In this document: piece after piece, positions 5,637 through 62,493 of the stretch
Position numbering within the stretch: position 1 is the first letter of the stretch
Layout: every line of letters begins with the position of its first letter
NCBI GenBank assembly: GCA_017466695.1
Contig: JAFTTR010000016.1
Coordinates: forward strand, 4,015-68,014
Reading direction: 5' to 3'
Source of the DNA: Alphaproteobacteria bacterium
GTDB taxonomy: Bacteria; Pseudomonadota; Alphaproteobacteria; CAAHEQ01; UBA3637
DNA length: 64,000 nucleotides
Notes under the pieces: generated by a model
Database searches by the model: none
Seen by the model: the letters and a program-made list of their open reading frames with translations, nothing else
What the model was told of the DNA's origin: nothing
Made by a program: the position numbers and the translations under genes

Positions 5637-8426
5637 TCACTCATCAGATAAGGATTCCTCTATTGATGATACAGGTTCTTCAACAACAGAATTTTCAATT
5701 GGATTTTGAGTTTCCAATTCATTCTCTTCGGAAACTTCTTCATCCACATCTGTGATACATGTTGCTGAAACAACTTTTTCTTCTTTATCAAGTCTAAAGA
5801 GAATTACACCCATTGTACTACGTCCTGCAATCTTAATATCACTGACACGCATACGAATGAGTTTTCCTCCATCCGTTACCATCATCAAGTGGGCATCATC
5901 TGGGACGGGCATTGTTGCGACAACGTCTGCTTTTCTGCGTTCATCCATCTTGATATTGGTTACACCTGATGTCCCACGAGCTGTAATGCGATATTCATAA
6001 GCACTGGTGCGTTTACCGAAACCTTTATCTGTGATTGTTAAGATAAATTCTTCATCTTGTGCCATTTTTTCAAATTCTTCGACTGATAAAGTTGCATTTG
6101 TTGGTGTTTCAATTTCAGGTGTTTCACCCTCTTCTACCTCACCCAATGCACGGCGACGAGCCGCAGCCTCTTTTAAATAAGCATCCCGTTTTTCAATATC
6201 AGCTTTTGCATGTTTAACAATTGACATTGAAATGACACTTTCACCTTCTGGCAATTTCATCCCACGTACACCAGTTGAAGCACGAGATTCAAAAATACGC
6301 ACATCTGAAACAGGGAAGCGAACACACTTACCACCTGCTGCTGCAAGCAATACGTCATCTGTATCATTACAAATTTGAACACCGATAAGTTTATCGCCTT
6401 CATCCAACTTCATAGCAATTTTACCATTTGATTGGACATTATAGAAATCTGTTAATCTGTTACGACGAACGCCACCAGAAGCCGTTGCAAACATCACTGT
6501 TTGATCACCACATTCTTCTTGTTTTTCAGGCAAGGTCAAAATTGTTGAAATTGTTTCCCCTTGTTGTAATGGCAAGAGGTTAATCAATGCCTTACCCAAA
6601 GATTGAGGGGACCCTTCTGGCAAGCGATATGTTTTAATTTTATAAACAATCCCTCTGCTTGAGAAGAAGAGAAGTGGGCTATGTGTACAAGCAACAAAGA
6701 GTTGAGAGACTTGATCTTCATCTCTTGTTGACATACCAGAACGCCCTTTTCCCCCTCTATTTTGAGCACGATATGTTGAAAGAGGAACACGCTTAATGTA
6801 ACCATTATTTGAAACAGTAACAACCATTGTTTCTCTTGGAATTAAATCTTCCATATCTTGTTCAAATTCAGCATTTTCAATCGTCGTTAAACGTTCACTT
6901 GAAACTTGAGCTTTCACAATCTCTAATTCTTCTTTGATGATTGCATAAATTTTTTCACGAGAAGCAAGTGTTGATAAATACCCTTTAATCAAAGCAGCTA
7001 ATTCACCAACTTCGCCATGAATTTTGTCTCTTTCCAAACCGGTCAAACGGTTTAACTTCAAATCCAAAATTGCTTTAGCTTGTGCTTCTGAAAGCATATA
7101 GTGGCCATCAACAACCTTGCGATCAGGTTCATCAATTAATTGAATGAGCGTTTCGACATCAGCAGCATCCCATTTTGTATCCATCAAACGCTGTTTAGCA
7201 ACTTGTGGATCTGGAGCACTCTTAATCATCTCAATAACAGCATCTAAGTTTGCAACAGCGATTGCTAAACCAACCAAAACGTGTGCTCTATCACGTGCTT
7301 TATTGAGTTCATAAACCGTACGGCGACGGACCACTTCTTCTCTAAAAGCAATAAATGCTTCTAAAATTTGTTTTAAATTCATCAACTCTGGACGGCCATT
7401 GTTGAGCGCCAACATATTCATGCTAAAACTTGTTTGCAATGAAGTATATTTAAACAATTGATTTAAAACAACATCTGGGTGAGCATCTTTTTTAAGTTCA
7501 ATAACAACACGAACACCTTGACGATCTGACTCATCTCTTAAATCAGAAATACCTTCAATGACTTTATCTTTAACAAGCTGAGCAATACGGATAATCATTT
7601 CAGCTTTATTAACTTGATATGGTACTTCTGTTACAACAATTGCCATACGGTCTTTTTTAATTTCCTCAATTGTTGTTCGTCCACGCATAATCACAGAACC
7701 ACGCCCCGTTTGATAAGCAGAACGAGCCCCACCTCGACCTAAAATCAAAGCCCCTGTTGGGAAATCTGGCCCTGGAACGTAATCCATCAATTCCTCAATT
7801 GTAATTTCTGGATTTTCAATCATTGCGATACAAGCAGAAATGACTTCTCCTGGGTTATGAGGTGGAATATTTGTAGCCATACCAACGGCAATACCACCAG
7901 ATCCATTCACCAACAAGTTTGGAAAGCGAGCTGGCAAAACTTCAGGTTCTTGACAGGTTTCATCATAGTTAGGTCTAAAATCAACTGTGTCTCTATCAAT
8001 ATCTTCTAACAAACAATGTGCTGTTTGAGCAAGTCTTGCTTCTGTATAACGCATTGCAGCAGCTTTATCCCCATCCATGGAACCAAAGTTCCCTTGTGAA
8101 CCAACAAGTGGAACACGCATAGAGAATGTTTGCGCCATACGAACCATTGCTTCATAAATCGAACTATCCCCATGAGGGTGATATTTACCCATAACGTCAC
8201 CAACGATACGGGCAGATTTTCGAAATGGCTTATTATAATCGTATCCATTTTCATGCATTGAAAACAAAATGCGACGATGAACAGGTTTTAACCCATCACG
8301 AACATCAGGTAATGCACGAGAAACAATAACACTCATTGCATAATCTAAATAAGATTTGCGCATTTCCTCTTCAATGGGTGCAGCAACCGTATCAACGGCA
8401 GTTGAACTTATTGATATATCAGTCAT
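5637..8426 (-). CDS. gyrA: DNA gyrase subunit A
   Basis: 929 aa; N-terminal [26 protein letters not shown], active-site region [11 protein letters not shown]-terminal beta-pinwheel with an inserted acidic segment and acidic tail. Confidence 0.97.
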
Positions 8427-26946: not shown

Positions 26947-26974
26947 AAAAAACTCCCAAAAAGGGAGTTTTTTA
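26947..26974. terminator. rho-independent terminator abutting the tRNA-Leu 3' end
   Basis: aactccc aaaaa gggagtt stem-loop followed by T6; A-run on other side (bidirectional). Confidence 0.65.
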
Positions 26975-27059
26975 TGGTGCGGTTAAGAAGACTCGAACTT
27001 CCACGGATCTCTCCACAGCGACCTCAACGCTGCGCGTCTACCAATTCCGCCATAACCGC
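26975..27059 (-). tRNA. tRNA-Leu (anticodon GAG), type II with long variable arm
   Basis: Minus-strand read GCGGTTATGGCGGAATTGGTAGACGCGCAGCGTTGAGGTCGCTGTGGAGAGATCCGTGGAAGTTCGAGTCTTCTTAACCGCACCA: 7-bp acceptor stem, D-loop GGAATTGGTAGAC, anticodon loop TTGAGGT, long extra arm, TPsiC GTTCGAGTC, encoded CCA. Confidence 0.85.
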
Positions 27060-27187
27060 AAAATTTAGGTGCATTATAGATAAGTTTTTTTTAAAATGCA
27101 AGATTTTTTTTAAATTCTTTATAAAAATATTTATCTTATCTAAAATAAAAAAAGTGGCACCCATACTGGCACCACTTTTTTTTAAAA

Positions 27188-27349
27188 CTATTTTCCACAA
27201 GGAGAAACAATTTCTGATAATGATAAAACACCAAACAAATATTGGTTTGTACAAACTTTTTGACCACCAATACGACCACGTTCACCCATACAACCGGACA
27301 ATGTAGAAACAGCAAAAACAAGAGCTGCAACCAATAACAATTTTTTCAT
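27188..27349 (-). CDS. small lipoprotein (53 aa), not in ORF track
   Basis: MKKLLLVAALVFAVSTLSGC|MGERGRIGGQKVCTNQYLFGVLSLSEIVSPCGK: signal peptide with lipobox LSGC; purine-rich stretch before the ATG. Confidence 0.5.
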   Translation of the reverse strand: MKKLLLVAALVFAVSTLSGCMGERGRIGGQKVCTNQYLFGVLSLSEIVSPCGK

Positions 27350-29801: not shown

Positions 29802-30110
29802 ATGAATGCACTTAAAATTGCAAAATTAGTCGTCTTTACGTTATCCATCTTTTTAATAGCTGGATTTTGTCTTATTATTTCAAAAATAACAGATAGACAA
29901 GAAAAAATCAACTTTAAAAATATAGCAAATCAAACCACCTTAAATGAAACAAGTGTTTTTTTGTCAGAACAAGAAAATGTTAAAGATATATTTTCTTGCA
30001 GTCAATACATTTGCATAACACTTCAAAAAGAAAATCACCCGACTCAAATTATCATTATTTCTCCTGAAACAGGAAAAATCTTTAATAAAATTTCATTTAA
30101 AACAAAATAA
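29802..30110 (+). CDS. hypothetical membrane-anchored small protein
   Basis: About 102 aa from MNALKIAKLVVFTLSIFLIAGFCLII; single N-terminal TM. Confidence 0.4.
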   Translation: MNALKIAKLVVFTLSIFLIAGFCLIISKITDRQEKINFKNIANQTTLNETSVFLSEQENVKDIFSCSQYICITLQKENHPTQIIIISPETGKIFNKISFKTK

Positions 30111-30200: not shown

Positions 30201-31571
30201 GTGGACAAGAAAAATATGGAAAAATTCTGGCAACGTCTTAGCATTTTAATAACAACAGAAAGCCTAGTCCTAGGTGTTTTTTGTTTTACTCCATTTTTGA
30301 TACTCGAATCTAAAAATATATCTTTTCAAAAAGATGCTTTTAAAATATCCCTTTATCAGTATACAGCTGTTTTATTTATTTGTCTTTTCGTATTATTTGT
30401 GTGTTTTTATGTTATTCCTCAATTTACAAAAAAACAAAAACTAAAAAAAGTGTGTCACTCACTTTCGCTCCAAACACTTTTACTAAATGAAAATACGACA
30501 TTAAGAAATGAAACACAGCTCTTAATTGAAAAACTTCAACACATTACCCAAACAGCACCTGAATTAATTTTAAATATTTTAAGATATTATTCCGTACAAT
30601 CTTCAAATTCTGTATGTCAAAATATTTTTTCTCCACTTCAACAAACTGGTATTATTCTTTCTTGCTTAGATAATAAGTCACGAAAAAAACTTTTTAAACG
30701 CATGTCTAAAAGAGAAATTAATTCATTCAAACAGCTATGTCACTCTTTGGGGTATATTTCAACTGAAGACAAATTTAAAATTCTTTCAATATTTTTAAAT
30801 ACGTTAACCGAACCAACAAAAAAAATAGAAACATCTGCCTTTGCTCAAAACATACAGCTTTCACAACCTGTTATTGAGATTTTAAAAAAAGAAAATCATT
30901 TTTCTAAAAAAGCTGATATTTGGGAAGAACTTAACTCAATTCCATCTGAAAAAATATCAAATTATTTAAAAAACGAATCTTCTCAATCAATTGCTATTAT
31001 TCTTTATAATCTTTCAGATAAAAAAGCTGGAGAAGTTTTAAACTTACTACCAAAAGAAATCTCAAGCACAGCCTTGTTAAGACTAACAGCTTTAAAATCA
31101 CTTTCAAAAAAAAGAATCCAAAATATTGAAACATCCTTAGAGTCATATTTTTTTAATATAACACCTCACGTTTTTTATCATGGCTGGGAAAAAGCTTCAG
31201 CTATTTTAAGCCTGATGACCAACCAGCAAAAAGACAAATTACTCTTAGCACTTACAAAAACAGCTCCACAAGTTGCAAAACAACTTTCACAACAAATTAT
31301 TTGCTTTGATGATTTAGCTTCTTGGAATAACACTGACATTTGTGCTCTTATCAAAAAAACACCTGAAAACATTTTGACACTAGCCTTATTAGGAGCAAAC
31401 AATAAAACAAGGGAAATCTTTTTAAAAAACATCTCACCCAAAAGATGGGGCGTTTTTCTAAAACAATTGAATAGACCTCATCCAGAAAGAATAAAAGAGA
31501 TTGACGAAGCGCAGTATTTTATTATAAAAAAAGCTCACGTTTTGATAAATAAAAAAACAAAAAAAGGATAA
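30201..31571 (+). CDS. membrane-anchored FliG-like protein (FliG middle + C-terminal domains after two TM helices)
   Basis: GTG start (alternative ATG at 30216). N-terminal TM helices; IAIILYNLSDKKAGEVLNLLPKEISSTALLRLTAL aligns to the FliG-M motif; C-terminus DDLASWNNTDICALIKKTPENILTLALLGANNKTREIFLKNISPKRWGVFLKQLNRPHPERIKEIDEAQYFIIKKA aligns to FliG-C. Confidence 0.55.
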   Translation: MDKKNMEKFWQRLSILITTESLVLGVFCFTPFLILESKNISFQKDAFKISLYQYTAVLFICLFVLFVCFYVIPQFTKKQKLKKVCHSLSLQTLLLNENTTLRNETQLLIEKLQHITQTAPELILNILRYYSVQSSNSVCQNIFSPLQQTGIILSCLDNKSRKKLFKRMSKREINSFKQLCHSLGYISTEDKFKILSIFLNTLTEPTKKIETSAFAQNIQLSQPVIEILKKENHFSKKADIWEELNSIPSEKISNYLKNESSQSIAIILYNLSDKKAGEVLNLLPKEISSTALLRLTALKSLSKKRIQNIETSLESYFFNITPHVFYHGWEKASAILSLMTNQQKDKLLLALTKTAPQVAKQLSQQIICFDDLASWNNTDICALIKKTPENILTLALLGANNKTREIFLKNISPKRWGVFLKQLNRPHPERIKEIDEAQYFIIKKAHVLINKKTKKG

Positions 31572-31574
31572 AAA

Positions 31575-32549
31575 ATGAAATTAAAAACTTTTTTTGCTCC
31601 CAGCATTCCTCAAGCAATGGAAGAAATACGAGAACTTTATGGTGAGCAAGCTGTTATTATTTCATCAACAAGAATTTTAAACAAGGGTGTAAAACTCATT
31701 GTTGCAACTGAAGAAAAAACTTCCGAAGCAGATCTTTTCTCATCTTTAAATGATTCACACAAAAAACAAAGAAAGATTTTTTTTCAAAAAGCACTCAAAC
31801 AACAAACTATTCCAGATGAATTCATTGAACGACTAACCCTTGCCTCCTTGAAAAAAAACATTAAAACACCTGATGAAAAATTATTAACTCATGCGTTTGA
31901 TGAACTTTTTCATTTTAAACCTCTTTATCCTATTGAAACAAATTCAATTTACGTTTTTGTTGGAAATGCAGGTTCAGGCAAAACTCTCACACTCAAAAAA
32001 ATGGCTTTGCAGGCAAAAAAAGAGCATCTCAAACCAAGTATTGTTACGTTAGACACTCAAAAAAGTGGCGCTGTTTCAGATATAAAAAACTTCGCTAAAA
32101 TGTTACAAATTCCCTGCACTGTTACAAAAGACATCAAAACCTTAAACGAAACAGTTACAATGATGCGATTGTCATCTAATTATATTTTAGTCGATACCCC
32201 AAGCATCAATCCATATAAAATAGATGAACTTGAAAAACTAAAAAGTATTAAACACCAAATCAGTGATGCGCAATTTATTTTAACAATGCCAGCAGGGCTT
32301 GATTTTCAAGAAGCAACAGCTCAAGGAGCTTTGTTTTCAAAAAATGGATGTCACCTACTTATTGCAACAAAGCTTGATTGTGCACACAACTATTTTAACA
32401 TTCTACAAACTCTTTTATATAACCAATTATATATGGCTGCATTTTGTTTTTCAAATAAAATTATTGACACGCCAATTGAGGCATCAGCCCAAAATTTAAC
32501 TAAACTTTTCACAACATCTAACACCTTTGCATATGAGGTAACCAAATGA
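31575..32549 (+). CDS. flhF: flagellar-type SRP-like GTPase FlhF
   Basis: N-terminus MKLKTFFAPSIPQAMEEIRELYGEQAVIISS matches the FlhF B/N-domain start; G-domain P-loop VGNAGSGKT, DTPS (G3), TKLD (G4). Confidence 0.8.
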   Translation: MKLKTFFAPSIPQAMEEIRELYGEQAVIISSTRILNKGVKLIVATEEKTSEADLFSSLNDSHKKQRKIFFQKALKQQTIPDEFIERLTLASLKKNIKTPDEKLLTHAFDELFHFKPLYPIETNSIYVFVGNAGSGKTLTLKKMALQAKKEHLKPSIVTLDTQKSGAVSDIKNFAKMLQIPCTVTKDIKTLNETVTMMRLSSNYILVDTPSINPYKIDELEKLKSIKHQISDAQFILTMPAGLDFQEATAQGALFSKNGCHLLIATKLDCAHNYFNILQTLLYNQLYMAAFCFSNKIIDTPIEASAQNLTKLFTTSNTFAYEVTK

Positions 32550-33334
32550 CAGTACAACCACAGCAACCCAAAATTCAAAATAATATTTTATCTCGTATAG
32601 GGGGACGAAACATTTTCGCCATTGCATCTGGTAAAGGAGGCGTTGGGAAAACATGGGTTGCTGTTTCACTGGCACATGCTTTTGCCTTAAAAGGGGAAAA
32701 AGTTCTTTTAATTGATGGAGATTTAGGTCTTTCTAATATCGATATTCAACTTGGCCTAACAGCTATACGTGACATTGGTGTTGTTCTTGCACACAATGCC
32801 CCTTTAAATAGCGCCATTATTCATGATGATACAATTCAATGTGACGTCATTGCCGGACATTCCGGCAGTCAAACACTGGCCGGCATGGAAGAAAACAGAC
32901 TCCAACTTTTATGTGATGATATCAAAATTTTAGCCAATCACTATGATAAAGTCATCATTGACCTTGGAACCGGTATACAAAAATCTGTCACAACGTTAGC
33001 TCAAATTGCCCATGAAATTTTAGTTGTTACAACAGATTCCCCAACATCTCTTGCAGATGCTTATGCATTTATTAAAATTATAACAACTGCTAAAAGTTCT
33101 TCCAATCCCAAGATCTTAATTAATATGGCTAATACAAAAAAAGAAGGTGAACACACATACCATACTTTATTAAAGGCATGCCAAACATTTTTAAATATAA
33201 CCCCTTCATTAGCAGGAATCGTTCATCTAGACTCCATGGCACGTGAAGCTGTTAAAACACAAACCCCTATTTTAAGTATCAATCCTCTTCCTCAAGCAGG
33301 AAAAGATATCCTTGAAATAGCTGGACTCTATTAG
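32546..33334 (+). CDS. flhG: MinD/ParA-family ATPase FlhG (FleN/YlxH)
   Basis: Deviant Walker A IASGKGGVGKT; overlaps flhF stop by 4 nt. Confidence 0.8.
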   Translation: MTVQPQQPKIQNNILSRIGGRNIFAIASGKGGVGKTWVAVSLAHAFALKGEKVLLIDGDLGLSNIDIQLGLTAIRDIGVVLAHNAPLNSAIIHDDTIQCDVIAGHSGSQTLAGMEENRLQLLCDDIKILANHYDKVIIDLGTGIQKSVTTLAQIAHEILVVTTDSPTSLADAYAFIKIITTAKSSSNPKILINMANTKKEGEHTYHTLLKACQTFLNITPSLAGIVHLDSMAREAVKTQTPILSINPLPQAGKDILEIAGLY

Positions 33335-33450
33335 ATTTTTGAAACGTTTTTTTATCAAACAAATAATACATACAATAAAATATAGAAACCCTTGACTTTA
33401 GCATAAAAATGGATTATTTAAAATTCATTCAGCTCAATGAAAGGAAGAGT

Positions 33451-36078
33451 ATGTTTTTAAAAAGTATTTTCGGATCTGCAAATGACAGATATTTAAAAAA
33501 ATTCAAAAAAACAATCAATAAAATCAACGAATTAGAATCACAATACGAACTGTTAAGCGATTCTCAATTAAGAGATAAAACTCAAGAATATAAAACACGT
33601 ATTCAAAATGGGGAAAGTTTAGAAAGCATTTTACCTGAAGCTTTTGCAAGTGTGAGAGAAGCTTCAAAACGTGTTTTAGGTTTACGTCCTTTTGATGTTC
33701 AATTATTAGGAGGTATTATTTTAAATAATGGTCAAATTGCAGAAATGAGAACCGGTGAAGGAAAAACACTTGTCGCAACAATGCCGGTCTATTTAAATGC
33801 ATTAACAGGGAAAGGTGTTCATGTTGTCACGGTAAATGATTATCTTGCAAAACGTGACAGCGAATGGATGGGTCAAATTTATCGTTTCTTAGGTTTAACT
33901 GTCGGCTGTATTGTTCATGACATGTCAACAACAGATAGACGCGCTGCTTATAATGCTGATATTACCTATGCAACAAATAATGAATTAGGATTTGATTATC
34001 TCAGAGACAATATGCGTTTTGAAATAAAGGAAATGGTTCAACGGCCATTTTATTATGCAATTGTTGACGAAGTTGACTCTATTTTAATTGATGAGGCAAG
34101 AACACCTTTGATTATATCTGGTCCTGCTGAAAACTCTTCTGAACGTTATATAGCTATTGATAAACTCGTTCGTACAGTCAAGCCAGAGCATTATGAAAAA
34201 GATGAAAAACATAAAAATGTTTCATTAACAGAACAAGGGTCCGAATATATTGAACAACTTTTAGCTGATGAAAATCTGATCCAAGGATCTTTATATGACA
34301 CACATAATATTGCCTTTGTTCACCACATTGATCAAGCATTAAAAGCAAATACACTCTTCACAAGAGATAAGGATTATATCGTCAAAGATGGCCAAGTTAT
34401 CATTATTGATGAATTCACGGGACGAATGATGCATGGTCGACGTTATTCTGATGGTCTACACCAAGCAATCGAAGCAAAAGAAGGGGTTGAAATTCAACCA
34501 GAAAACCAAACTCTTGCCTCTATCACGTTCCAAAACTATTTCAGAATGTATCCAAAATTAGCAGGTATGACCGGTACAGCTATGACAGAAGCTGGCGAGT
34601 TTGATGATATTTATCATTTGGCCGTTGTTGAGATTCCAACAAATAAAGTTCCTCAACGCAAGGATGAAAATGACGTTATTTATCGCACTGCTGATGAAAA
34701 ATACGAAGCCATTATTGAAGATGTCAAACAAGCTCACGCGAAAGGACAACCTGTTTTAATTGGTACAGGCTCAATTGAAAAATCTGAAATTTTAGCAGAC
34801 TTAATGAGGAAAAAGACATCCATTCCTTTCAATGTACTCAACGCACGCCATCATGAACAAGAAGCTAAAATCATTGCACAAGCAGGTGCTCCTGGAGCTG
34901 TTACAATTGCAACGAACATGGCTGGTCGTGGGACAGACATTCAATTGGGCGGCAATGTTGAAATGCTCTTAAAAGAAGCCCTTGAGAAAAATCCAACAGC
35001 CGATAAAGAAACGCTTTTAAATCAAATCAAAGCAGATGTACAAAAGAAAAAAGAACAGGTTTTAAATGCTGGTGGACTTTTTGTTTTAGGTTCTGAGCGA
35101 CATGAAAGTCGTCGTATTGACAACCAGTTAAGAGGTCGTTCAGGTCGTCAAGGCGACCCTGGATTATCTCGCTTCTATGTATCATTAGAAGACGATTTAA
35201 TGCGTATATTTGGTGCAAATCGCATTCAAAACCTTTTGCCTAAATTAGGATTAAAGAGAGGTGAGCCAATCACACATAACTTCATTACAAAAGCACTTGC
35301 TGTTGCTCAAAAGAAGGTAGAAACATACCACTTTGACGTTCGTAAAAACCTGCTTAAATTTGATGATGTTATGAACGATCAAAGAAAAGCTATTTATGAA
35401 CAACGCAAAGAACTTATGCTTTCTTCTTCTGTTTCCGACACATTAGCAGAAATGCGTCTAGATACCATTCAAAATGTAATCTATGATTTGGCACCTGAAC
35501 GCTCTAACCCTGAAGATTGGAATGCCAATCTTTTGTCAAAAGAAGTTGCTAGAGTTTTTGCAATTGATGTTCCATTTTCATCATGGGTGAAGGAACCAGG
35601 TATCACCCCAGGGGCAATGGTTGAAAGAGTAGACACCCTCCTTCATAAAGATATTGAAACAAAAATGAGCATGCTTCCAGAAGATATTAAAAACAACTTA
35701 GAAAAAAGTATTCTCATTCAAGTTATTGACCAAATGTGGAAAGAACATTTGCAAACGCTTGACTTTATGAAAACAGCTATTAATCTTCGTGCCTATGGAC
35801 AAAGAAATCCTTTAAATGAATATAAAAGAGAAGCCTTTATTTTATTTGAAACTCTTTTAAATAAAGTCAGAGAAAAAGTAACAGAATTAATCTGTCATAT
35901 GCAATTACAAATACAGGCTCAATCCTCTGATGACATAAAAGAAAGTCATCCGCATCCGGTTAATCCAACAACAGAGGACCCATTTTCAACTCCTGAAGGG
36001 CAAATTTCAAGAAATGCACCTTGTCCTTGTGGATCTCAAAAAAAATATAAACACTGTTGTGGTGCCATTAAAAATTAA
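33451..36078 (+). CDS. secA: preprotein translocase ATPase SecA
   Basis: Start at [18 protein letters not shown] (canonical SecA N-terminus, AAAGGAAGAG SD). DEAD motor motifs; C-terminal zinc finger [14 protein letters not shown]. Confidence 0.97.
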
Positions 36079-36088
36079 GGAGACAAAC

Positions 36089-36499
36089 ATGAAAAAACAA
36101 GAACAAACTGGTCGTTCAATGATTGAAATTCTTGCCGTTCTAGCCATTATTGGTGTTTTGTCAATCGGTGGCCTTGCAGGATATAGCTTATCTGCCCAGC
36201 GTATCCAAATAAATAACATTATGGACATTGCAACAAAATTCTCAGCAAAAGGCGTTGGTGGAAGAACTTTTAACTCTTTGGCAGCGGCTGGACTTGAAAA
36301 ACCGAATGGGATTGACATGGTTTTAGATGAAGCAGGAAACGTTTGTTTGAAAGATTTTCCTAGAACTACACCAAAAGACCAACGTATGTTCGCAGCTTTT
36401 AAGGCACAAGCGAGTAGTTATGTTGTTCCAACTGATTCTTTCGCACTCCCTGGACATACTTGCAGTCTTGTTTTATCATTTTCAAGAAGAATTGATTAA
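36089..36499 (+). CDS. type IV pilin / pseudopilin-like protein (orphan)
   Basis: MKKQEQTG|RSMIEILAVLAIIGVLSIGG: short basic leader ending in Gly, Glu at +5, hydrophobic alpha1-N helix; two Cys near C-terminus; AAGGAG SD; starts 10 nt after secA stop. Confidence 0.7.
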   Translation: MKKQEQTGRSMIEILAVLAIIGVLSIGGLAGYSLSAQRIQINNIMDIATKFSAKGVGGRTFNSLAAAGLEKPNGIDMVLDEAGNVCLKDFPRTTPKDQRMFAAFKAQASSYVVPTDSFALPGHTCSLVLSFSRRID

Positions 36500-49827: not shown

Positions 49828-50799
49828 CTACTTTAAATTCTTTAATGTTTGAAACATAATATCAAAAAAACTTTTTTCATTCACCTTTCGAATAACATTT
49901 ACCAAGAACCCTTCATCATCAATAAGAGTTTTACCCCTTGTATTTGTTAAATCAATTTTAAGTGGTATCTTTTCTTGAACAAAAATCGATGGCTCAATTA
50001 AATATGCCATCGCAACGGCATCATGTATAGCTCGGACAGGGTCATTCTTGTTTTTTCGTAATGCCCCATAATCTAAAACATCCTCTGGTCCCACAGTTGC
50101 AAGCATATCAGCAACAGATATGCCCATCCAACCAATAGAACGTAACTTTTTATCAATTTCACCATTATATAAAATTTTTCGTGTTACGTCCAACCCTATT
50201 AAATTAATCTGTTTTATCTTAGAACTCAAAACTTGATGAACAGCTTCTGGATCAGTGGCAAAATTATATTCTGCATAAGTTTTACCTCCATCATATGAAA
50301 TATTGCCAAATCTGTTGTGAATATGTTCTTTAAAAACACACCCACCCATAATTGTTAAACTAGGTATATTTGTTGCTATTAATGAATTTCTTTTTAAAGC
50401 ATGCGCTATATTTGTTTGAGGAGCCAATGCACACAAATGAATATTTGATTGACTACTATACAAATCACTCAAAAAGTCAGAAGCACTTACAGAGGATATA
50501 TTTCCTTTTAAACAGGGCCAATAAGATGTCCCATCCATCCCAGAATATCCAAAAACATCTTCAAGCGTCACATGTTTTTGTTTTAATGGTTTAGTTGCAC
50601 CTTTATAAATTGGAATATCTTCTCTTTTTGCTAATGAGAGTATTTTGCAAGCGTTTTGTAATGTTTTATCAACACCAACATTTCCTGCAACAACCGAGAG
50701 TGCCTTTACCTTAATATTTTCAGCACCCAACGCCATCAAAATAGCAAGCGCATCGTCTTGTCCTGGATCGCAATCAATTACAATTTCTTTTATGCTCAT
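49828..50799 (-). CDS. inosine-uridine preferring nucleoside hydrolase
   Basis: N-terminal aspartate cluster DCDPGQDDALAIL (IUNH signature DxDxxxDD). Confidence 0.9.
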   Translation of the reverse strand: MSIKEIVIDCDPGQDDALAILMALGAENIKVKALSVVAGNVGVDKTLQNACKILSLAKREDIPIYKGATKPLKQKHVTLEDVFGYSGMDGTSYWPCLKGNISSVSASDFLSDLYSSQSNIHLCALAPQTNIAHALKRNSLIATNIPSLTIMGGCVFKEHIHNRFGNISYDGGKTYAEYNFATDPEAVHQVLSSKIKQINLIGLDVTRKILYNGEIDKKLRSIGWMGISVADMLATVGPEDVLDYGALRKNKNDPVRAIHDAVAMAYLIEPSIFVQEKIPLKIDLTNTRGKTLIDDEGFLVNVIRKVNEKSFFDIMFQTLKNLK

Positions 50800-50803
50800 T
50801 TAT

Positions 50804-51748
50804 TTACCGCAAAATAAAATCAACTCGTTCTTTGAATGATAAATTTTTAGGGTAAGAATCTATTTCTTTTAAAATATGGACTAACCCTTTTTGATTCGCT
50901 ATTTGAATTGCTAACCCTGGACGAGCGTTTAACTCTAACATCATAGGACCCAGCTCTTTATCCATCACAATATCAGCTCCCAAATATCCAAGACCTGTCA
51001 TATCATATCCTTTTGAAGCAATTTCCAAATGTGTACGCCAATCAGGAACTTTTAATGTTAACAGGTCAGCCCCTGTATCTGGATGATATGAAATAGGCAT
51101 ATTATGTTGAACAGCTGCCAAAGCTTTCCCTGTTTTAATATCGATACCGACACCAACAGCTCCTTGGTGCAAATTGGCTCGCCCTCCTGATTCTTTTGTT
51201 GCAAGTCGCATCATAGCAATAGCTGGATATCCCTTATAAACAATAATACGCACATCTGGAATCCCTTGAAAGCTATAATCTTTAAATTGATCTGAAAAAG
51301 AAACAACCTCCTCAATAATTGCTTCATCATATTGACCACCCAAACTATATAATCCACTTAATACATTTGAGATGTGTTGGTAAACTTCTGTGAATTTTAT
51401 AACTTTATTTGAAGCCGTTCTAAAATGATTTTGTGTGTAATGTTTAATAACTAAAACCCCTTTACCCCCGCTTCCATGAGCTGGTTTTATGACAAATCCT
51501 TTCCATCCTTTTACCATTTGAAGAAAATTTTTCACTTCATACTGCGCTTTTATAACACCTATTAATCTTGGCGTTTGAATCCCAACCGTTGTTGCCAACT
51601 CTTTTGTTTTTACCTTATCATCAACCAATGGATATAATCGTCTTGAATTATGTAATCCAATAATTGAAAAATTACGATAATTCATATTTAAGACACCTGC
51701 TTTTTTCAAAGCCCAAGGAGATGCAAACATTCTAAAAAATTTAAACAT
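50804..51748 (-). CDS. ATP-grasp enzyme, alpha-L-glutamate ligase-like (RimK-related)
   Basis: 314 aa; ATP-grasp core GFVIKPAHGSGGKGVLVI ... DIVMDKELGPMMLELNARPGL. Confidence 0.75.
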   Translation of the reverse strand: MFKFFRMFASPWALKKAGVLNMNYRNFSIIGLHNSRRLYPLVDDKVKTKELATTVGIQTPRLIGVIKAQYEVKNFLQMVKGWKGFVIKPAHGSGGKGVLVIKHYTQNHFRTASNKVIKFTEVYQHISNVLSGLYSLGGQYDEAIIEEVVSFSDQFKDYSFQGIPDVRIIVYKGYPAIAMMRLATKESGGRANLHQGAVGVGIDIKTGKALAAVQHNMPISYHPDTGADLLTLKVPDWRTHLEIASKGYDMTGLGYLGADIVMDKELGPMMLELNARPGLAIQIANQKGLVHILKEIDSYPKNLSFKERVDFILR

Positions 51749-53318
51749 TTCCCCCTCTTTTATTTGTTTTTTTCAGTTTTTTTTTACTTTTTACCAAAGG
51801 AGCAAAACGTTTCAATTCCGTAAGTCTATATCCTGTATATATTCCAAGCAACATAATTAAAAAGAGAATAACAACATTTAACTCATTAAAAGCAAATGTA
51901 ATATGTCTAATTGACTCATTTACAATCACAAAATAAATTACAATTGCAGCAAACAAACTGTATAACATTTCTTTAAATGCATTTTTAAAACCTTCTTCCT
52001 CCCAAATAATAGACCCTCTTTCAATAACCCAAGCTATAATAATAATTGGGAAAAAGAGTGCTGAAGAAGCGACTTGCCAATCAAATTGATAACCCAAAAT
52101 AGCAAATATTTGAATAAGTAATATCACAAAAACAACAACAGCAGAAATACGTGGAACAAGCAATAAATTCAAGCGTGATAAACACATTCGAATAAATAAA
52201 CCAACACCAACAACAATACTAAAACAAATCAATCCTTTTAAAAATCCAGTTTCAACCAAAGCCATAGAAATCAACATTGGTGTAAACGTCCCCATTGTTT
52301 TAATGCCTATTACATTTCTTAAAATAACAACGACTAAAATCGCCAAAGGAAAAACCATCAACCATTTGAGTGCATTTTGCTGTTCGAGGGGCAAATTATA
52401 AACAGAATAAGAAAAAAAGTTTTCAATATCTGCATTTTTCGATCTATGTTTTGCCATACTAAATGAAGAATTAAGCGATTTTAAAACAGAATATTTTATT
52501 GAAGAATCCCCTCCTCCGATAACATCTACCAAAGAAGCATTGCCTTTTTGAAATACAATAAAATCTGCAGGCAAACCTGTTTTCCCTGTTTCGATATTAT
52601 AAACATACCATTTTTTTTCATTTAAGTTATAAGCCTCTATCATCACATCAGCTGTAACCGATTTTTTCCCTTCAACTAAATGAACACCTCTAATGACTCT
52701 GGCTGGTATATTTTCAAGCGCCAACAGATCGACAATTTTTTCTGCTTTTTCTTTTAATTTAGTTCTTTTAGGTAAAAAAGACTGAACAAGTTCTGTTGCC
52801 TCCTCATTATTTAAAAGTGCAATAATTTTTTGCGCATTATCCCCTTCTTCTTTTTTTGCAACTTGAAGCAATTCTTTAGCAATCATCATTGTTTCATCAT
52901 CAAACAATGGCTCAACAATTTTTGGTGGATTATTTTCTTTTTTTGCTTTTTTTGCATCAACTGTATCATAAAGCAAAATCCGATAATACACATTTTGTGT
53001 CTTTTTTAAATTTTTCCCAACCAACTTGATTGTTCTATCTTTTTTTTGAACAGTATAATTACCCTTTGCAATTGTATTTTCATCCAAAATTTTAAATGTG
53101 CCATCCACAATGGGTCGAGAAAAAACAATTTCCACATTTTCAGAGACAGGTTTAAATTTTAAGTTTGCTTCAATTGTCCAAACAGGTGTCTTTTTATCAA
53201 TCTCCCATGTAAAATTCAAAAAATGTTGTTTGTAATAAATTCCAAAACCAGCATACAAAAGAGAAAAGATTAATCCTACAAATAAACTCCATCTTACAAT
53301 TGCTAGTTTTTTAAACAT
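51741..53318 (-). CDS. 7TM membrane protein with large N-terminal extracytoplasmic domain (inactive-transglutaminase-fused 7TM family-like)
   Basis: 525 aa; N-terminal anchor, about 280-aa soluble domain, then seven predicted TM helices (res 310-505); overlaps the ATP-grasp gene start by 8 nt. Confidence 0.6.
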   Translation of the reverse strand: MFKKLAIVRWSLFVGLIFSLLYAGFGIYYKQHFLNFTWEIDKKTPVWTIEANLKFKPVSENVEIVFSRPIVDGTFKILDENTIAKGNYTVQKKDRTIKLVGKNLKKTQNVYYRILLYDTVDAKKAKKENNPPKIVEPLFDDETMMIAKELLQVAKKEEGDNAQKIIALLNNEEATELVQSFLPKRTKLKEKAEKIVDLLALENIPARVIRGVHLVEGKKSVTADVMIEAYNLNEKKWYVYNIETGKTGLPADFIVFQKGNASLVDVIGGGDSSIKYSVLKSLNSSFSMAKHRSKNADIENFFSYSVYNLPLEQQNALKWLMVFPLAILVVVILRNVIGIKTMGTFTPMLISMALVETGFLKGLICFSIVVGVGLFIRMCLSRLNLLLVPRISAVVVFVILLIQIFAILGYQFDWQVASSALFFPIIIIAWVIERGSIIWEEEGFKNAFKEMLYSLFAAIVIYFVIVNESIRHITFAFNELNVVILFLIMLLGIYTGYRLTELKRFAPLVKSKKKLKKTNKRGGNV

Positions 53319-53330
53319 GGTATCCTCTTA

Positions 53331-53906
53331 TTAATATAACGTTTTTGAAAGAGCCGTATCAACAATAGCTCTACCTTTTAAAACATTTCGCCCAATTAAA
53401 CCTTGATAATCAAACTTAGAGCGATCAGCTAAAGAAAATTGTGTTGTTATTTTTTCATCTCCCATTTTAATGGTCATCAGAACAACTATTCTTTCTTCCG
53501 ATTCTTTTTGTCTTTTTATAGCCGTTTGGCGATAAACTCGTTTTTCAAAATGGTGTGTCTCCCCATTTTTTTTATTCACAACATCAAAAGAAACCCACTT
53601 AACTCCTTCTCTTTCAAAAAGATTAATATTTTGAGCATCAATAGAAGATGTCGCAGCCCCCGTATCAATTCTAGATAAAATCGCCTTTTTCATTGGTAAA
53701 AAATAAACAGGTTCAACCTCACCAATAATTCCTAATTTATGAGTTTGAGACACCTGTTCTTCTAGAGAGACAGCTGGGACTTTTATTGTTTTAATTGTTT
53801 CAATAACTGTTGGTTTTGTTGGCGTTATTTCTTTTTTTTCAACAGCACAAGATGAGCAAATAGCCAATGACAATACTAAAAAAGAACTTAAAAAATGTTT
53901 TTTCAT
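53331..53906 (-). CDS. retropepsin-like aspartic protease (COG4067 / putative ATP-dependent zinc protease family)
   Basis: Start at MKKHFL (AAAAGGGG SD); signal peptide; catalytic-type RIDTGAATSSID motif. Confidence 0.65.
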   Translation of the reverse strand: MKKHFLSSFLVLSLAICSSCAVEKKEITPTKPTVIETIKTIKVPAVSLEEQVSQTHKLGIIGEVEPVYFLPMKKAILSRIDTGAATSSIDAQNINLFEREGVKWVSFDVVNKKNGETHHFEKRVYRQTAIKRQKESEERIVVLMTIKMGDEKITTQFSLADRSKFDYQGLIGRNVLKGRAIVDTALSKTLY

Positions 53907-54026
53907 TTTTACCCCTTTTATGACATTTTTTTTATATTTTAATAAAAACATACAAAAAGTAAAGCAAAAACTTGCTATTTTTTTTTGAATAAAATATATT
54001 CATCATAAACAAAGGAGACGACTATA

Positions 54027-58861: not shown

Positions 58862-60004
58862 ATGGGACAAAAAAATTTTCTTTTACATTTATGCGTTTGC
58901 AGTCTGTTAAGTTATGCTCCATTTTTTGCCTTCAATGTTCAAGCATATAATAACTTAGAGGTTGCTCAAGGGGATGGAGAGCCTGTCGAAGTATCTGTCG
59001 AAGAACAATTACAAGCAGCCCAAAAACTTGCTGATGAAGAAAATGAAAACACAGCAACAATTACAGCAGAAGGTGATTTTTTACTCCCAACATATTTATT
59101 AAAAACCACTGAAGATACATCAAGTAAAATTGAAGAGATACCTACTGATGAACCTCTTTTTGATGAGCCAACTGAGAAAAAAGAACCCTCAGTAAAAAAA
59201 ATTACTGCTGTTAAAAAGAAAACACAAACAGACTTACCTGTTGTAATGATTAAACAAACAGAGCTTATCCCTGTGAATGAGCAAATGGAAGTTGAGAGAA
59301 AATTAACAGGATCAACAACACAAACTCAAAAGATTTACGATCAAGCAACTCAAAAGAAAAATTCTTTTTCTGTAAATAAAAAAGAAAATAACTTGAGCGT
59401 CTCCAAGAAAAAACAATCAAATCAATCTTTAGCATCTTCAACAGATGACGAAATCAGTAGTATTTTAAAAGGAACTGATTCCTTAAAAACACAAGAAATC
59501 GAAACAGGGAAGAAAAAGCCTCTTCTTTTGCCATTAAAAGGAACAAAAAAACCAGTAAAAGCAGAAAGTGTAGATGAATTTATCCCTAATCCAAGATTGA
59601 AAACATATTCTTCCGTCTATGCAGATAAGGTTCTTGAAGCAGCACAAACAAATCAAGAATTGCCTTTAATTATGCCAATGGATTTAAAAGTTTCATTTTA
59701 TCCAAACGCTGCTGATTTTTCGGGTCAAACAATCAAATGGTTAAAGGTTTTTTCACTCAAAGCTTTGCAAGATCCACGTTATGTTATTGAAGTTCGTCTA
59801 AGTAAAGAAGATCTTTTATTACAACAAAAACGCTTGTTTGTTATTCAAAAGATTTTAGCAAATTCAGGTTTATCAAGTCATCAATTAGTTGTTGATTATG
59901 TAAAAAGGCCAAAAGATAGTCTTATTTTAAGAATGGTTAAGAAAGAGCCTTCTGTTAACATTCGTTCACGTACAAAAAAAGAAAAAAGTGTTATTAACTG
60001 GTAA
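58862..60004 (+). CDS. secreted hypothetical protein, low-complexity Lys/Thr/Gln-rich middle, possible OmpA/MotB-like C-terminal region
   Basis: 380 aa; signal peptide; C-terminal RLFVIQKILANSGLSSHQLVVDYV loosely resembles the LSxxRA-type peptidoglycan-binding motif. Confidence 0.45.
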   Translation: MGQKNFLLHLCVCSLLSYAPFFAFNVQAYNNLEVAQGDGEPVEVSVEEQLQAAQKLADEENENTATITAEGDFLLPTYLLKTTEDTSSKIEEIPTDEPLFDEPTEKKEPSVKKITAVKKKTQTDLPVVMIKQTELIPVNEQMEVERKLTGSTTQTQKIYDQATQKKNSFSVNKKENNLSVSKKKQSNQSLASSTDDEISSILKGTDSLKTQEIETGKKKPLLLPLKGTKKPVKAESVDEFIPNPRLKTYSSVYADKVLEAAQTNQELPLIMPMDLKVSFYPNAADFSGQTIKWLKVFSLKALQDPRYVIEVRLSKEDLLLQQKRLFVIQKILANSGLSSHQLVVDYVKRPKDSLILRMVKKEPSVNIRSRTKKEKSVINW

Positions 60005-60020
60005 CAATAAAGGAGTTTAG

Positions 60021-60833
60021 ATGAGACAAGATTATTTAAAACAAACCACAATAGCAGGACTTTTGTTCTGTGGTTTAAGTTTTATGAGTGGATGTGCTTC
60101 TCTCTCACAAGGTGATGAAGTTATTGCACAAGAAGAACCTGTAACATATACTGCTCCTGCGCAAGGTGTTGTTGATCCAAACATTTGCTCTCCAGAAAAT
60201 CCAGCAGCCTGCATCGTTTCTTATGAAGATCCAAGTTTAACACTGGGCCAAAGTTATACACCTTATGAAGGATTGGCTGTTTCAACAAACGCATCTTATC
60301 TTGTTGATATGGCCCCAGTGTCCATTTCCGTTCCCATGATTGAACAAGGCTTATCAGTTAAAGAGAAAATGGCTCAAAAAGAATTAGAACAACAACAAAA
60401 AGATTTAGCATTAAAACCTGTTTCAAATGCTGATATTATTTGTAATGGAGAAGACTGCCAAGATCAATTATTTAAAACCGAGATTGAAAAAGAAGTTCAA
60501 ACAACCATTACAGAAGAAACAACATTAAGAGCTCCAACATTGAAAGATAAACTCGCTTATGGCGAGGAAGTTCATGATTGGGAAGCAAAAGCTGGTGACA
60601 CAATGCGTACTCTTTTAAGACAATGGGGGGAAGCCTCTGGTTGGACTGTTGTTTGGAAACTAGATAGAGACTATCATTTAGAGGCAGGCGTTGTCTTTAG
60701 AGGGAATTTTACTGAAGTTGCAGCCGCATTTATCCGTTCTTTTGCAAGAGCAACTCCAGCTCCAATTGGTACATTCTATAAAGGAAACAGAGTTCTAGTT
60801 ATAAATGCACAGGAGAATGAAAATGCAGATTAA
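60021..60833 (+). CDS. lipoprotein with TcpQ/PilL-like C-terminal domain (type IVb pilus biogenesis)
   Basis: Lipobox FMSGC|AS. C-terminus GDTMRTLLRQWGEASGWTVVWKLDRDYHLEAGVVFRGNFTEVAAAFIRSFARATPAPIGTFYKGNRVLVIN fits my recollection of the TcpQ-family pattern (tLR..L..WA..aGW.v.W..dy.l ... f.G.f..A ... fy.gNrVLvv). Confidence 0.5.
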   Translation: MRQDYLKQTTIAGLLFCGLSFMSGCASLSQGDEVIAQEEPVTYTAPAQGVVDPNICSPENPAACIVSYEDPSLTLGQSYTPYEGLAVSTNASYLVDMAPVSISVPMIEQGLSVKEKMAQKELEQQQKDLALKPVSNADIICNGEDCQDQLFKTEIEKEVQTTITEETTLRAPTLKDKLAYGEEVHDWEAKAGDTMRTLLRQWGEASGWTVVWKLDRDYHLEAGVVFRGNFTEVAAAFIRSFARATPAPIGTFYKGNRVLVINAQENENAD

Positions 60834-62481: not shown

Positions 62482-62493
62482 GGAGTTAAAATA

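Follow-up and report, generated by a model that had tools for sequence, protein, structure and literature searches.

Why would a bacterium encode a flagellar rotor protein together with FlhF and FlhG, and no other flagellar protein nearby? The question is raised by three adjoining genes in a stretch of 64,000 nucleotides from an uncultured alphaproteobacterium (GenBank assembly GCA_017466695.1, contig JAFTTR010000016.1, positions 4,015 to 68,014 of the forward strand), the whole of which is called the window. The genes encode a membrane-anchored FliG-like protein, an FlhF-like GTPase of the SRP (signal recognition particle) type and a MinD-family ATPase of the FlhG/FleN type. An earlier description of the locus (the original prediction) had offered two alternatives, a dispersed flagellar regulon with an unusual FliG, or an FlhF/FlhG polarity module repurposed with a membrane-tethered FliG-like adaptor. 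The first protein is a complete, full-length FliG homologue behind a vestigial FliF. The operon probably serves a purpose other than swimming. As read from the window and the related loci of this uncultured gut alphaproteobacterial clade, only the first building blocks of a flagellum appear to be kept, namely a membrane-anchored rotor protein devoid of motor contacts and two placement enzymes.

The membrane anchor and the FliG portion of the fusion

FliG_N, FliG_M and FliG_C were all recognised in the first protein above their Pfam cutoffs (Table 1), which gives it the three-domain architecture of FliG, and FliG_N was also matched by 5tdy_B (E 0.005) in a profile search of solved structures. 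The original prediction had described two N-terminal transmembrane (TM) helices followed by similarity to the middle and C-terminal domains of FliG, and had placed the helices where FliG normally carries its N-terminal domain. Helices and similarity are both borne out, whereas the replacement of the N-terminal domain is not. Besides the FliG_N match itself, it is contradicted by TIGR00207 (fliG equivalog), which aligned over model positions 13–315 of 338, and by a profile of the nine closest relatives, which matches full-length Aquifex FliG 3hjl from residue 3 onwards (E 5e-34). Since FliG_N is present and the alignments span the length of FliG, the TM part is an additional N-terminal extension of ~135 residues. 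TIGR00207 scored 97.4 bits, far under its cutoff of 226.7, so that the protein falls outside the fliG equivalog. An hhalign comparison with E. coli FliG gave a probability of 98.4. The AlphaFold2 model of the fusion has a mean predicted local distance difference test score (pLDDT) of 66, with domains at ~75–90. In Foldseek it matched FliG chains in cryo-electron microscopy structures of the Salmonella C-ring (E 7.8e-10), and its C-terminal domain matched 1qc7 with a template-modelling score of 0.82.

The TM extension resembles FliF in layout. TM2 is followed by the basic cytoplasmic stretch PQFTKKQKLKK, a positive-inside flank, and two TM helices with a join of ~20 residues and this stretch therefore give the topology N-in, C-in, as in FliF. 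Neither of the FliF ring domains, PF01514 (ring-building motifs (RBM) 1–2) and PF08345 (RBM3), was matched by Pfam in the window protein. The large periplasmic ring region that separates the TM helices of FliF is thus missing, and the C-terminal helix that binds FliG_N is present by alignment. The evidence for this helix comes through a longer relative, P0009 (615 aa), which matches E. coli FliF in BLASTP (E 9e-8) over the end of the periplasmic region, TM2 and the C-terminal FliG-binding helix. In the tail helix this alignment pairs TPDLAVRVIRRWL with DPRVVALVIRQWI, and the window segment APELILNILRYY occupies the same column in the junction alignment. Direct comparison of the close-clade profile with E. 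coli FliF by hhalign gave nothing meaningful, as the periplasmic domain is gone from the window clade and the homology is visible only via P0009. The profile match to the engineered FliF-FliG chain 8z4d begins at profile position 101, upstream of FliG.

When FliF and FliG are joined end to end in silico, from either the E. coli pair or a canonical alphaproteobacterial pair (locus L019), the natural fusions align collinearly with the product. The order at the junction is TM2, basic linker, tail helix, ~10 residues and the N-terminus of FliG. The stop of fliF overlaps the start of fliG in each of the two canonical operons, and a small frameshift or stop loss would therefore suffice for fusion. 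The membrane anchor is thus what remains of FliF, i.e., TM1, TM2 and the FliG-binding tail, and the protein is a natural FliF-FliG fusion whose anchor is itself no novelty. Of the membrane-tethered FliG-like adaptor proposed earlier, the membrane-anchored FliG stands; its N-terminal FliG domain and the FliF origin of its anchor had been missed.

Torque-helix residues of FliG were compared by aligning the FliG portions of 109 canonical-length FliGs and of the fusions to E. coli FliG and reading off the experimentally defined sites; the comparison group consisted of the window clade and its nearest long relatives (n=15). Lysine or arginine at position 264 (E. coli numbering) was found in 105 of the 109 canonical FliGs and in none of the 15, and arginine or lysine at position 281 in 104/109 and 8/15, respectively. 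Positions 288 and 289 are both acidic in 97 canonical FliGs and in no member of the comparison group; among more distant members of the fusion family only 2 of 22 keep the acidic pair. The window fusion has L264, K281, K288, Q289 and R297, where E. coli has K264, R281, D288, D289 and R297. The torque helix is thus degenerate: the acidic pair, which contacts the stator protein MotA, is replaced by one basic and one neutral residue (D288→K, D289→Q), and K264 by leucine. Because these charges are lost, the FliG part of the fusion is predicted to be unable to act as a canonical torque generator. The MS ring houses and scaffolds the export gate and rod. Because all periplasmic ring-building domains are deleted, the window fusion should likewise be unable to build an MS ring of this kind. 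In the middle domain, the EHPQR motif, which is associated with FliM binding, reads E-S-S-Q…R, with E, Q and R kept and H126 and P127 lost.

The operon, its relatives and its conservation

The three open reading frames (ORFs) of the original prediction were recovered at 30201–31571, 31575–32549 and 32546–33334, and its identification of the second gene as flhF, the third as flhG and the next one as secA was confirmed. Fusion and flhF are separated by a gap of 3 nt and flhF and flhG overlap by 4 nt; the three genes are therefore predicted to be translationally coupled and to form one operon. The database gene call for the fusion starts at ATG 30216 and not at GTG 30201. Its product of 451 aa has exactly the sequence of P0001, which is annotated as a 'hypothetical protein' in an uncultured Alphaproteobacteria metagenome-assembled genome (MAG) from a ruminant gut data set and is found on nine contigs; an exact-sequence lookup with the 456-aa GTG-start product gave no match. 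G+C content is ~28–39% throughout the window. In this AT-rich DNA a promoter scan was uninformative and terminator-like sites occurred at chance rate.

Table 1. Coordinates of the operon, of the segments of the fusion protein and of neighbouring features in the window
Feature	Position	Strand	Details
Vestigial-FliF–FliG fusion gene	30216..31571	+	451 aa from ATG 30216; ORF open from GTG 30201 (456 aa)
TM1, equivalent of FliF TM1	30243..30299	+	residues 10–28 counted from ATG 30216; hydropathy 1.85 over 19 residues; AlphaFold2 helix 2–34
Residual periplasmic loop	30300..30359	+	~20 aa, where FliF has a ring-building region of ~400 aa
TM2, equivalent of FliF TM2	30360..30416	+	residues 49–67 counted from ATG 30216; hydropathy 2.73; aligns with FliF TM2 in junction alignment
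FliF C-terminal tail helix	30498..30596	+	~residues 95–127, …TAPELILNILRYY…; segment binding FliG_N in flagella; pLDDT 86–90
FliG N-terminal domain	30633..30821	+	PF14842, 32 bits (cutoff 25), E 2e-7; residues 145–207 of 456-aa ORF
FliG middle domain	30948..31151	+	PF14841, 61.6 bits, E 8.6e-17; residues 250–317 of 456-aa ORF
FliG C-terminal domain, degenerate torque helix	31251..31547	+	PF01706, 72.6 bits, E 3.8e-20; residues 351–449 of 456-aa ORF
FlhF-like SRP-type GTPase gene	31575..32549	+	324 aa; begins 3 nt past fusion stop codon
FlhG/FleN-type MinD-family ATPase gene	32546..33334	+	262 aa; 4-nt overlap with flhF
secA	33409–36078		directly downstream of the three genes
Small single-pass membrane protein gene	29802..30110	+	102 aa; upstream neighbour of fusion; module membership uncertain
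Prepilin-type (type IV pilin-like) gene	36089..36499	+	GRSMIEILAVLAIIGVLS…; TIGR02532, 18.3 bits (cutoff 16.3); link to module uncertain
Type IVb pilus-like cluster	58862–63852, continues past window end		includes a 380-aa protein without family match
TcpQ-domain protein	60021–60833		in type IVb pilus-like cluster
PilN-family type IVB secretin	60805–62481		271.6 bits (cutoff 287.65); in type IVb pilus-like cluster
PAP_PilO protein	62494–63852		in type IVb pilus-like cluster

The FlhF-like protein has TIGR03499 as its best NCBIfam match (E 8.6e-31), with 108 bits against 44.6 for SRP54 and 41.8 for FtsY, which is under the equivalog cutoff of 174.15. Its best match among solved structures is B. 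subtilis FlhF (E 1.8e-10), marginally ahead of SRP54 (1.5e-9), and its N-terminus MKLKTFFAPS… is typical of FlhF. The G1 (GNAGSGKT) and G4 (TKLD) motifs are kept. G2 reads DTQK in place of the expected DxxR, and G3 DTPSI in place of DTAGR, so that both catalytic arginines and the G3 glycine are replaced and the set of GTPase motifs is not intact. The G3 arginine is missing in all nine FlhF orthologues compared, i.e., the seven of the window clade, which have DTP[SAC], and those of L014 and L015. The FlhF-like protein would thus bind nucleotide and no longer hydrolyse it in the canonical way.

The FlhG protein is closer to FlhG/FleN (FleN 5j1j, E 1.6e-36; FlhG 4rz2, E ~5e-33) than to MinD (E ~4e-17), and its equivalog score is also under the cutoff. 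The deviant Walker A motif SGKGGVGKT is intact and all ATPase motifs are kept. The protein aligns to residues 24–267 of the 295 of G. thermodenitrificans FlhG and ends three residues past the alignment, and its orthologues extend by at most ~8 residues. The C-terminal membrane-targeting helix of FlhG and MinD presumably falls in the part that is missing here. Since the protein ends right after the core fold, it appears to have no C-terminal amphipathic membrane-targeting helix. At the N-terminus (…PKIQNNILSRIGGRN) a glutamine and a leucine stand at a spacing compatible with DQAxxLR; D, A and R are missing, and the segment is variable among orthologues. A preprint describes this N-terminal motif of FlhG as activating FlhF (10.1101/2022.03.19.484964). 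In the window protein the activator motif would be vestigial at best.

Selection was assessed from the ratio of nonsynonymous to synonymous substitution rates (dN/dS) against four orthologues. The values are 0.19–0.32 for the fusion, 0.08–0.21 for flhF, 0.07–0.15 for flhG and 0.03–0.06 for secA, and are to be read as rough since dS (~0.8–1.8) is near saturation. The proportion of nonsynonymous differences (pN) is far under that of synonymous ones (pS) in all three genes; every region of the fusion is constrained, including the TM hairpin (pN/pS 0.28). The fusion is 67–71% identical between organisms whose GyrA proteins are 95–97% identical (window against L008 and L009). Every relative sampled, from at least nine clusters of the close clade (90% identity) and dozens of the wider family (50% identity), has intact reading frames, and the coupled operon lies beside housekeeping genes in every relative examined for gene order. 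The three genes are maintained under purifying selection and are not decaying.

Relatives were collected by an exhaustive profile search, which returned 5,561 FliG-like representatives. Among the best matches are dozens of proteins of 520–650 aa with the layout TM1, FliF C-terminal periplasmic domain, TM2, tail helix and full FliG; YscJ_FliF_C (PF08345) lies between both TM helices in P0009, P0014, P0018 and others. The loop between TM1 and TM2 measures 404 aa in E. coli FliF, 396 aa in the FliF of L019, 384 aa in the full-length fusion P0101, 137–212 aa in the broad fusion family and 10–20 aa in the window clade. For P0018, the model resembles FliG (E 1.7e-14) as well as the RBM3/β-collar S-ring part of FliF (8t8p, E 8.5e-9; 6sd1, template-modelling score 0.56), and intermediates therefore keep the ring-forming domain that is deleted in the window protein. 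The gene neighbourhoods vary likewise. P0180, the closest unfused relative, is encoded in the canonical operon fliK-flgD-fliF-fliG-(223 aa)-fliN-σ54 activator (L019). Fusions of the P0018 type (L015, L016, L024) are found as rluD / fusion-fliN-flhF-flhG-rpsD, with a FliN that passes its equivalog cutoff. P0014, P0009 and the window clade show rluD / small ORF / fusion-flhF-flhG, mostly followed by secA. Other branches have no FlhF, with neither FlhF nor FlhG in L017 and only a degenerate FlhG-like protein in L018 and L020. The relatives form a reduction series from the canonical operon through S-ring-only fusions, some with FliN, to the window form. A scan of reference genomes returned the close form in four species only, plus one canonical FliG locus. 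In JGI metagenomes a scan with the close-clade alignment gave no match and one with the P0018 subfamily gave one locus.

Within this wider family, the fusions with RBM3 as their only FliF ring domain (P0011–P0104; loci L014–L018, L020 and L024) make up a large group, with dozens of clusters at 50% identity. Wherever a sampled member carries a source name, its annotation is simply that of an Alphaproteobacteria MAG, and the family is apparently undescribed. In P0103 (648 aa, RBM3-only FliF; L020 1702–3648), R281, D288 and D289 are retained, and a FliN gene comes next. An intact torque helix is seen in P0101 (869 aa), a fusion of full-length FliF to FliG, and P0099 is likewise among the fusions that keep the motor residues; judged from these residues, P0103, P0101 and P0099 could be working rotor fusions in flagellated organisms. 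Several FlhG relatives of the family deviate in the P-loop. The FlhG-like protein of L018 (2731–3348) has ATLPHDNI in place of SGKGGVGKT, that of L015 (13197–13988) has SGGGGNGKT without the signature lysine, and the MinD/FlhG-like protein beside the fusion in L020 (4330–5046) has a degenerate P-loop; all three look like pseudo-ATPases. GyrA (gene at window 5637–8426) gave no taxonomic placement of the host lineage: identity is 77% or more for each of the best 120 matches, and wherever a name is attached it is that of an uncultured 'Alphaproteobacteria bacterium' MAG. In these data the lineage is diverse and without a cultured member.

The flagellar inventory agrees with the claim of the original prediction that the 64 kb hold no other flagellar genes. 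Precomputed Pfam calls (~1–64 kb) gave no other flagellar or chemotaxis gene in the window, and a tblastn search over 285 kb (window and related loci), for which the queries were alphaproteobacterial references and 40 flagellar and chemotaxis proteins of E. coli, returned only FliF fragments, FliG and FliN, the last confined to less reduced relatives. The controls were positive, with FlhA (E 8e-146), FliF, FliG, FliN and FlgD found in two canonical loci. FliM, FliN and MotAB are missing from the window and from ±10 kb around the module in relatives, except for FliN in L015, L016, L020 and L024. Matches to CheY in the tblastn search were rejected as a chemotaxis gene, as they belong to an OmpR-type response regulator (Response_reg + Trans_reg_C).

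Candidate functions and known counterparts

The operon is best explained, with moderate confidence, as a flagellum-derived, non-motor membrane scaffold and positioning module. Of the two alternatives of the original prediction, the evidence favours the second, in which an FlhF/FlhG module is repurposed together with a FliG-like adaptor, because the torque charges are lost, the FliF ring domains are deleted, the coupled operon is conserved and the genes are under purifying selection; the adaptor was described without recognising its anchor as a FliF remnant. The three genes would be what survives of the stage that initiates polar flagellum assembly and would now serve as a spatial scaffold. FlhF pulls down the N-terminal 108 residues of FliF, TM1 included (bioRxiv 10.1101/2023.01.12.523874), and the FliF tail binds FliG_N (PMC4768692); TM1, TM2 and the tail are all of FliF that is kept in the window protein, besides the short loop and the linker. 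The FlhF-like protein, probably a nucleotide-bound adaptor and not a cycling GTPase, may recognise the FliF TM1 region and assist the insertion or clustering of the fusion at a particular place in the membrane. The FliG domains would form a cytoplasmic platform, and FlhG, without a membrane anchor of its own, may be recruited to or regulated by this platform in an ATP-dependent manner. More speculatively, the module probably marks or organises the cell pole, and its output could be the blocking of polar division, by analogy with Campylobacter jejuni, or the positioning of a type IV pilus machine.

Several points weigh against this explanation. Canonical fliF and fliG and the rest of the regulon could lie elsewhere in the genomes. 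The output function is a guess, and localisation and interaction are here predicted. In C. jejuni, fliG is not needed for division control and FliM and FliN are, which is the reverse of the module content. The presence of FlhF and FlhG varies within the wider fusion family (neither in L017, a degenerate FlhG-like protein only in L018 and L020), and the fusion may therefore have a function independent of them. The AlphaFold2 model is of only moderate overall confidence, and the selection estimates suffer from the near-saturated dS. The EHPQR variant alone would say little on the loss of FliM, since a similar E-S-S-Q variant is found in P0062, a canonical-length FliG with an intact torque helix.

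A more far-reaching reading is that the hosts have no flagellum at all and that fusion, FlhF and FlhG make up a self-standing cell-pole organiser with its origin in the first step by which flagella are assembled. Its membrane-anchored FliG platform would be positioned by an FlhF that does not hydrolyse, and FlhG would use it to control something else, for example division-site choice, as a substitute for Min, or pilus placement. The probability of this reading is put at slightly less than even. If it is true, the 520–650-aa S-ring-only fusions would be a widespread unrecognised class of non-motor 'empty' structures resembling MS and C rings.

The module may instead position a type IV pilus or another envelope machine, with the FliG platform as a polar hub that recruits pilus components. 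The only prepilin-type motif of the 64 kb directly follows secA, and pilin-like homologues lie at most ~3 kb from the module in three gene orders, i.e., after secA in the window clade (L005 and L008–L011, ~15.8–16.3 kb), directly upstream of the fusion in L004 (8241–9839, encoding 532 aa with numerous Cys-rich repeats) and beyond rluD in L015 (8448–8696, minus strand) and L024. A type IVb pilus cluster with TcpQ, PilN-type secretin and PilO is also present at 58.8–64 kb. The recurrence of the prepilin-type gene near the module lends the pilus link of the original prediction weak support. However, the adjacency may be inherited synteny, three arrangements are few and the chance estimate of ~0.01 is rough and not rigorous; the type IVb cluster is 25 kb away, and no interaction of FliG with a pilus protein was found in the literature. 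This reading is considered rather unlikely, and it is a variant of the scaffold and positioning module with another output, and no true alternative to it. A true alternative is a working flagellum encoded at scattered loci, of which the three genes would be one, with the fusion either an unusual yet functional rotor part or paralogous to canonical fliF and fliG. In Salmonella and Vibrio, FliF-FliG fusions engineered at full length form rings and allow motility (PMC4768692; PMC10941966), the longer fusions P0103 and P0101 keep canonical torque residues, and the inventory covered the window and related loci rather than whole genomes. Yet the window protein has ~20 periplasmic residues in place of RBM1–3 and would thus offer no scaffold for export gate or rod, its stator-contact charges are replaced, and FlhF has lost its catalytic residues. 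Moreover, no fliM, motAB, flhA or fliA is found near the operon in the contexts examined, fliN is found only in less reduced relatives, and the operon lies amid housekeeping genes. A dispersed regulon is accordingly judged improbable.

Still lower is the probability that the genes are non-functional, decaying remnants of a lost flagellum, which we regard as very small. Degenerate motifs in FliG (torque helix) and in FlhF (G2, G3), the progressive loss of domains and genes across the family, and a fusion that evolves much faster than GyrA all speak for decay, but this reading is largely refuted by the selection analysis, with pN far under pS in all three genes, and it also disagrees with the intact frames of every sampled relative, the conserved translational coupling and the full set of ATPase motifs in FlhG. 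Practically negligible is the probability that the fusion is a generic MgtE-N/FliG-fold repeat protein unrelated to flagella, one of the outcomes that the original prediction had named as refuting it. The MgtE_N match in the fusion is weak (E 1.3e-4; 22.8 bits, below the Pfam cutoff of 25.9), and the protein has no CBS or transporter domain. The three FliG domains score far above MgtE_N and above their own cutoffs, the best Foldseek match to MgtE has E 0.63 against 7.8e-10 for FliG, and Aquifex FliG is matched over its full length. The generic protein is thus refuted by these domain and structure matches, by the FliF homology in relatives and by the flagellar-type neighbours FliN, FlhF and FlhG.

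The scaffold and positioning module may be compared with several known systems. With canonical FliF and FliG it has in common the TM1/TM2 topology, the FliF tail helix, the three FliG domains and the fliF-fliG order; it differs in being one polypeptide, in the shortening of the periplasmic RBM1–3 region from ~400 to ~20 aa, in the change of K264, D288 and D289 to L, K and Q, in the loss of H126 and P127 and in its equivalog score (97 against 226.7 bits). Natural FliF-FliG fusions are not unprecedented. Chlamydiaceae, which are thought to be non-flagellated and have few flagellar genes, carry a natural fusion of a shortened FliF to FliG (Bergeron 2016, PMC4768692), and in this join they resemble the window. 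The Chlamydia fusion of ~330 aa has two periplasmic ring-building motifs and only a fragment of the FliG middle domain (PMC4768692). The window fusion is the opposite, with almost no periplasmic domain and a complete FliG, and is from another phylum; its partners are FlhF and FlhG, whereas those in Chlamydia are FlhA, FliI or the injectisome. The two fusions, compared through the published description of the Chlamydia protein, are likely to be independent in origin. Engineered or spontaneous full-length FliF-FliG fusions are able to fold, enter the membrane and assemble into rings (PMC4768692; PMC10941966; PMC11481574); they are functional in Salmonella (PMC4768692) and form rings in Vibrio. 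They share with the window fusion an end-to-end join at the same junction, but they keep the entire FliF and a functional torque helix within a complete flagellum, which the window fusion does not.

FlhF-FlhG systems of Vibrio, Pseudomonas, Campylobacter and Bacillus, which determine where and how many polar flagella are built, likewise have an SRP-type GTPase and a MinD-type ATPase encoded side by side. In the window the pair follows fliF-fliG instead of flhA and has no fliA next to it; FlhF is without the G2 and G3 arginines and the G3 glycine, and FlhG without a clear DQAxxLR and, apparently, the C-terminal amphipathic helix. In C. jejuni, polar division is blocked by a single pathway made up of FlhF, FliF, FliM, FliN and FlhG, for which the export apparatus and rod are dispensable (Balaban & Hendrixson 2011, PMC3228812); fliG mutants show little effect on division control, and FliM and FliN are required (PMC3228812). 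This pathway, an early flagellar subset plus FlhG with a role other than motility, is the closest functional analogy. The C. jejuni proteins are, however, part of working flagella, while in the window FliG is kept, FliM is absent and FliN is found only in less reduced relatives. Non-flagellated Lysobacter enzymogenes retains and re-uses a subset of flagellar genes, among them those of the export apparatus, according to PMC7688988 and PMC9927559; the window is the opposite, with the export apparatus missing and rotor and placement proteins kept.

No published description was found of the alphaproteobacterial fusion family, of its coupling to FlhF/FlhG or of the reduction series, and the alphaproteobacterial form with FlhF/FlhG is apparently undescribed. 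The module would be a natural minimal flagellar initiation complex, in which the parts of FliF kept after the loss of the flagellum can be seen: TM1, within the region reported to bind FlhF, TM2, and the tail, which is the FliG-binding segment. It would offer a simple system for studying what FlhF recognises and which roles FlhF and FlhG have beyond the building of flagella. Its graded relatives would document the stepwise dismantling of a molecular machine and the re-use of one piece, and should the wider fusion family form rings that lack an export gate, these would be an unrecognised membrane structure in many uncultured Alphaproteobacteria.

Neighbouring genes

The small membrane protein encoded between the fusion and the divergent rluD (~100 aa) carries a TM helix at its N-terminus and the motif …P.TG.I… at its C-terminus, and two of its cysteines are conserved. 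It has no family in Pfam or NCBIfam, the sole match being DUF6476 (E 0.042). Homologues are found upstream of the fusion in L004 (7082–7402), L005, L008, L010, L011, L014 (1152–1496) and even the distant L017 (483–788), and are absent in L015.

Further from the operon, a cluster on the minus strand (49828–53951) encodes a 7TM transglutaminase-like membrane protein (Transglut_i_TM + 7TM_transglut, 525 aa), an ATPgrasp_ST protein (314 aa) and a RimB-like protein (206 aa), and adjoins a nucleoside hydrolase gene. A tRNA gene (26978–27059, minus strand) is the only Rfam match in the window; the ORFs at 26974–27306 and 27024–27254 overlap it and are probably spurious.

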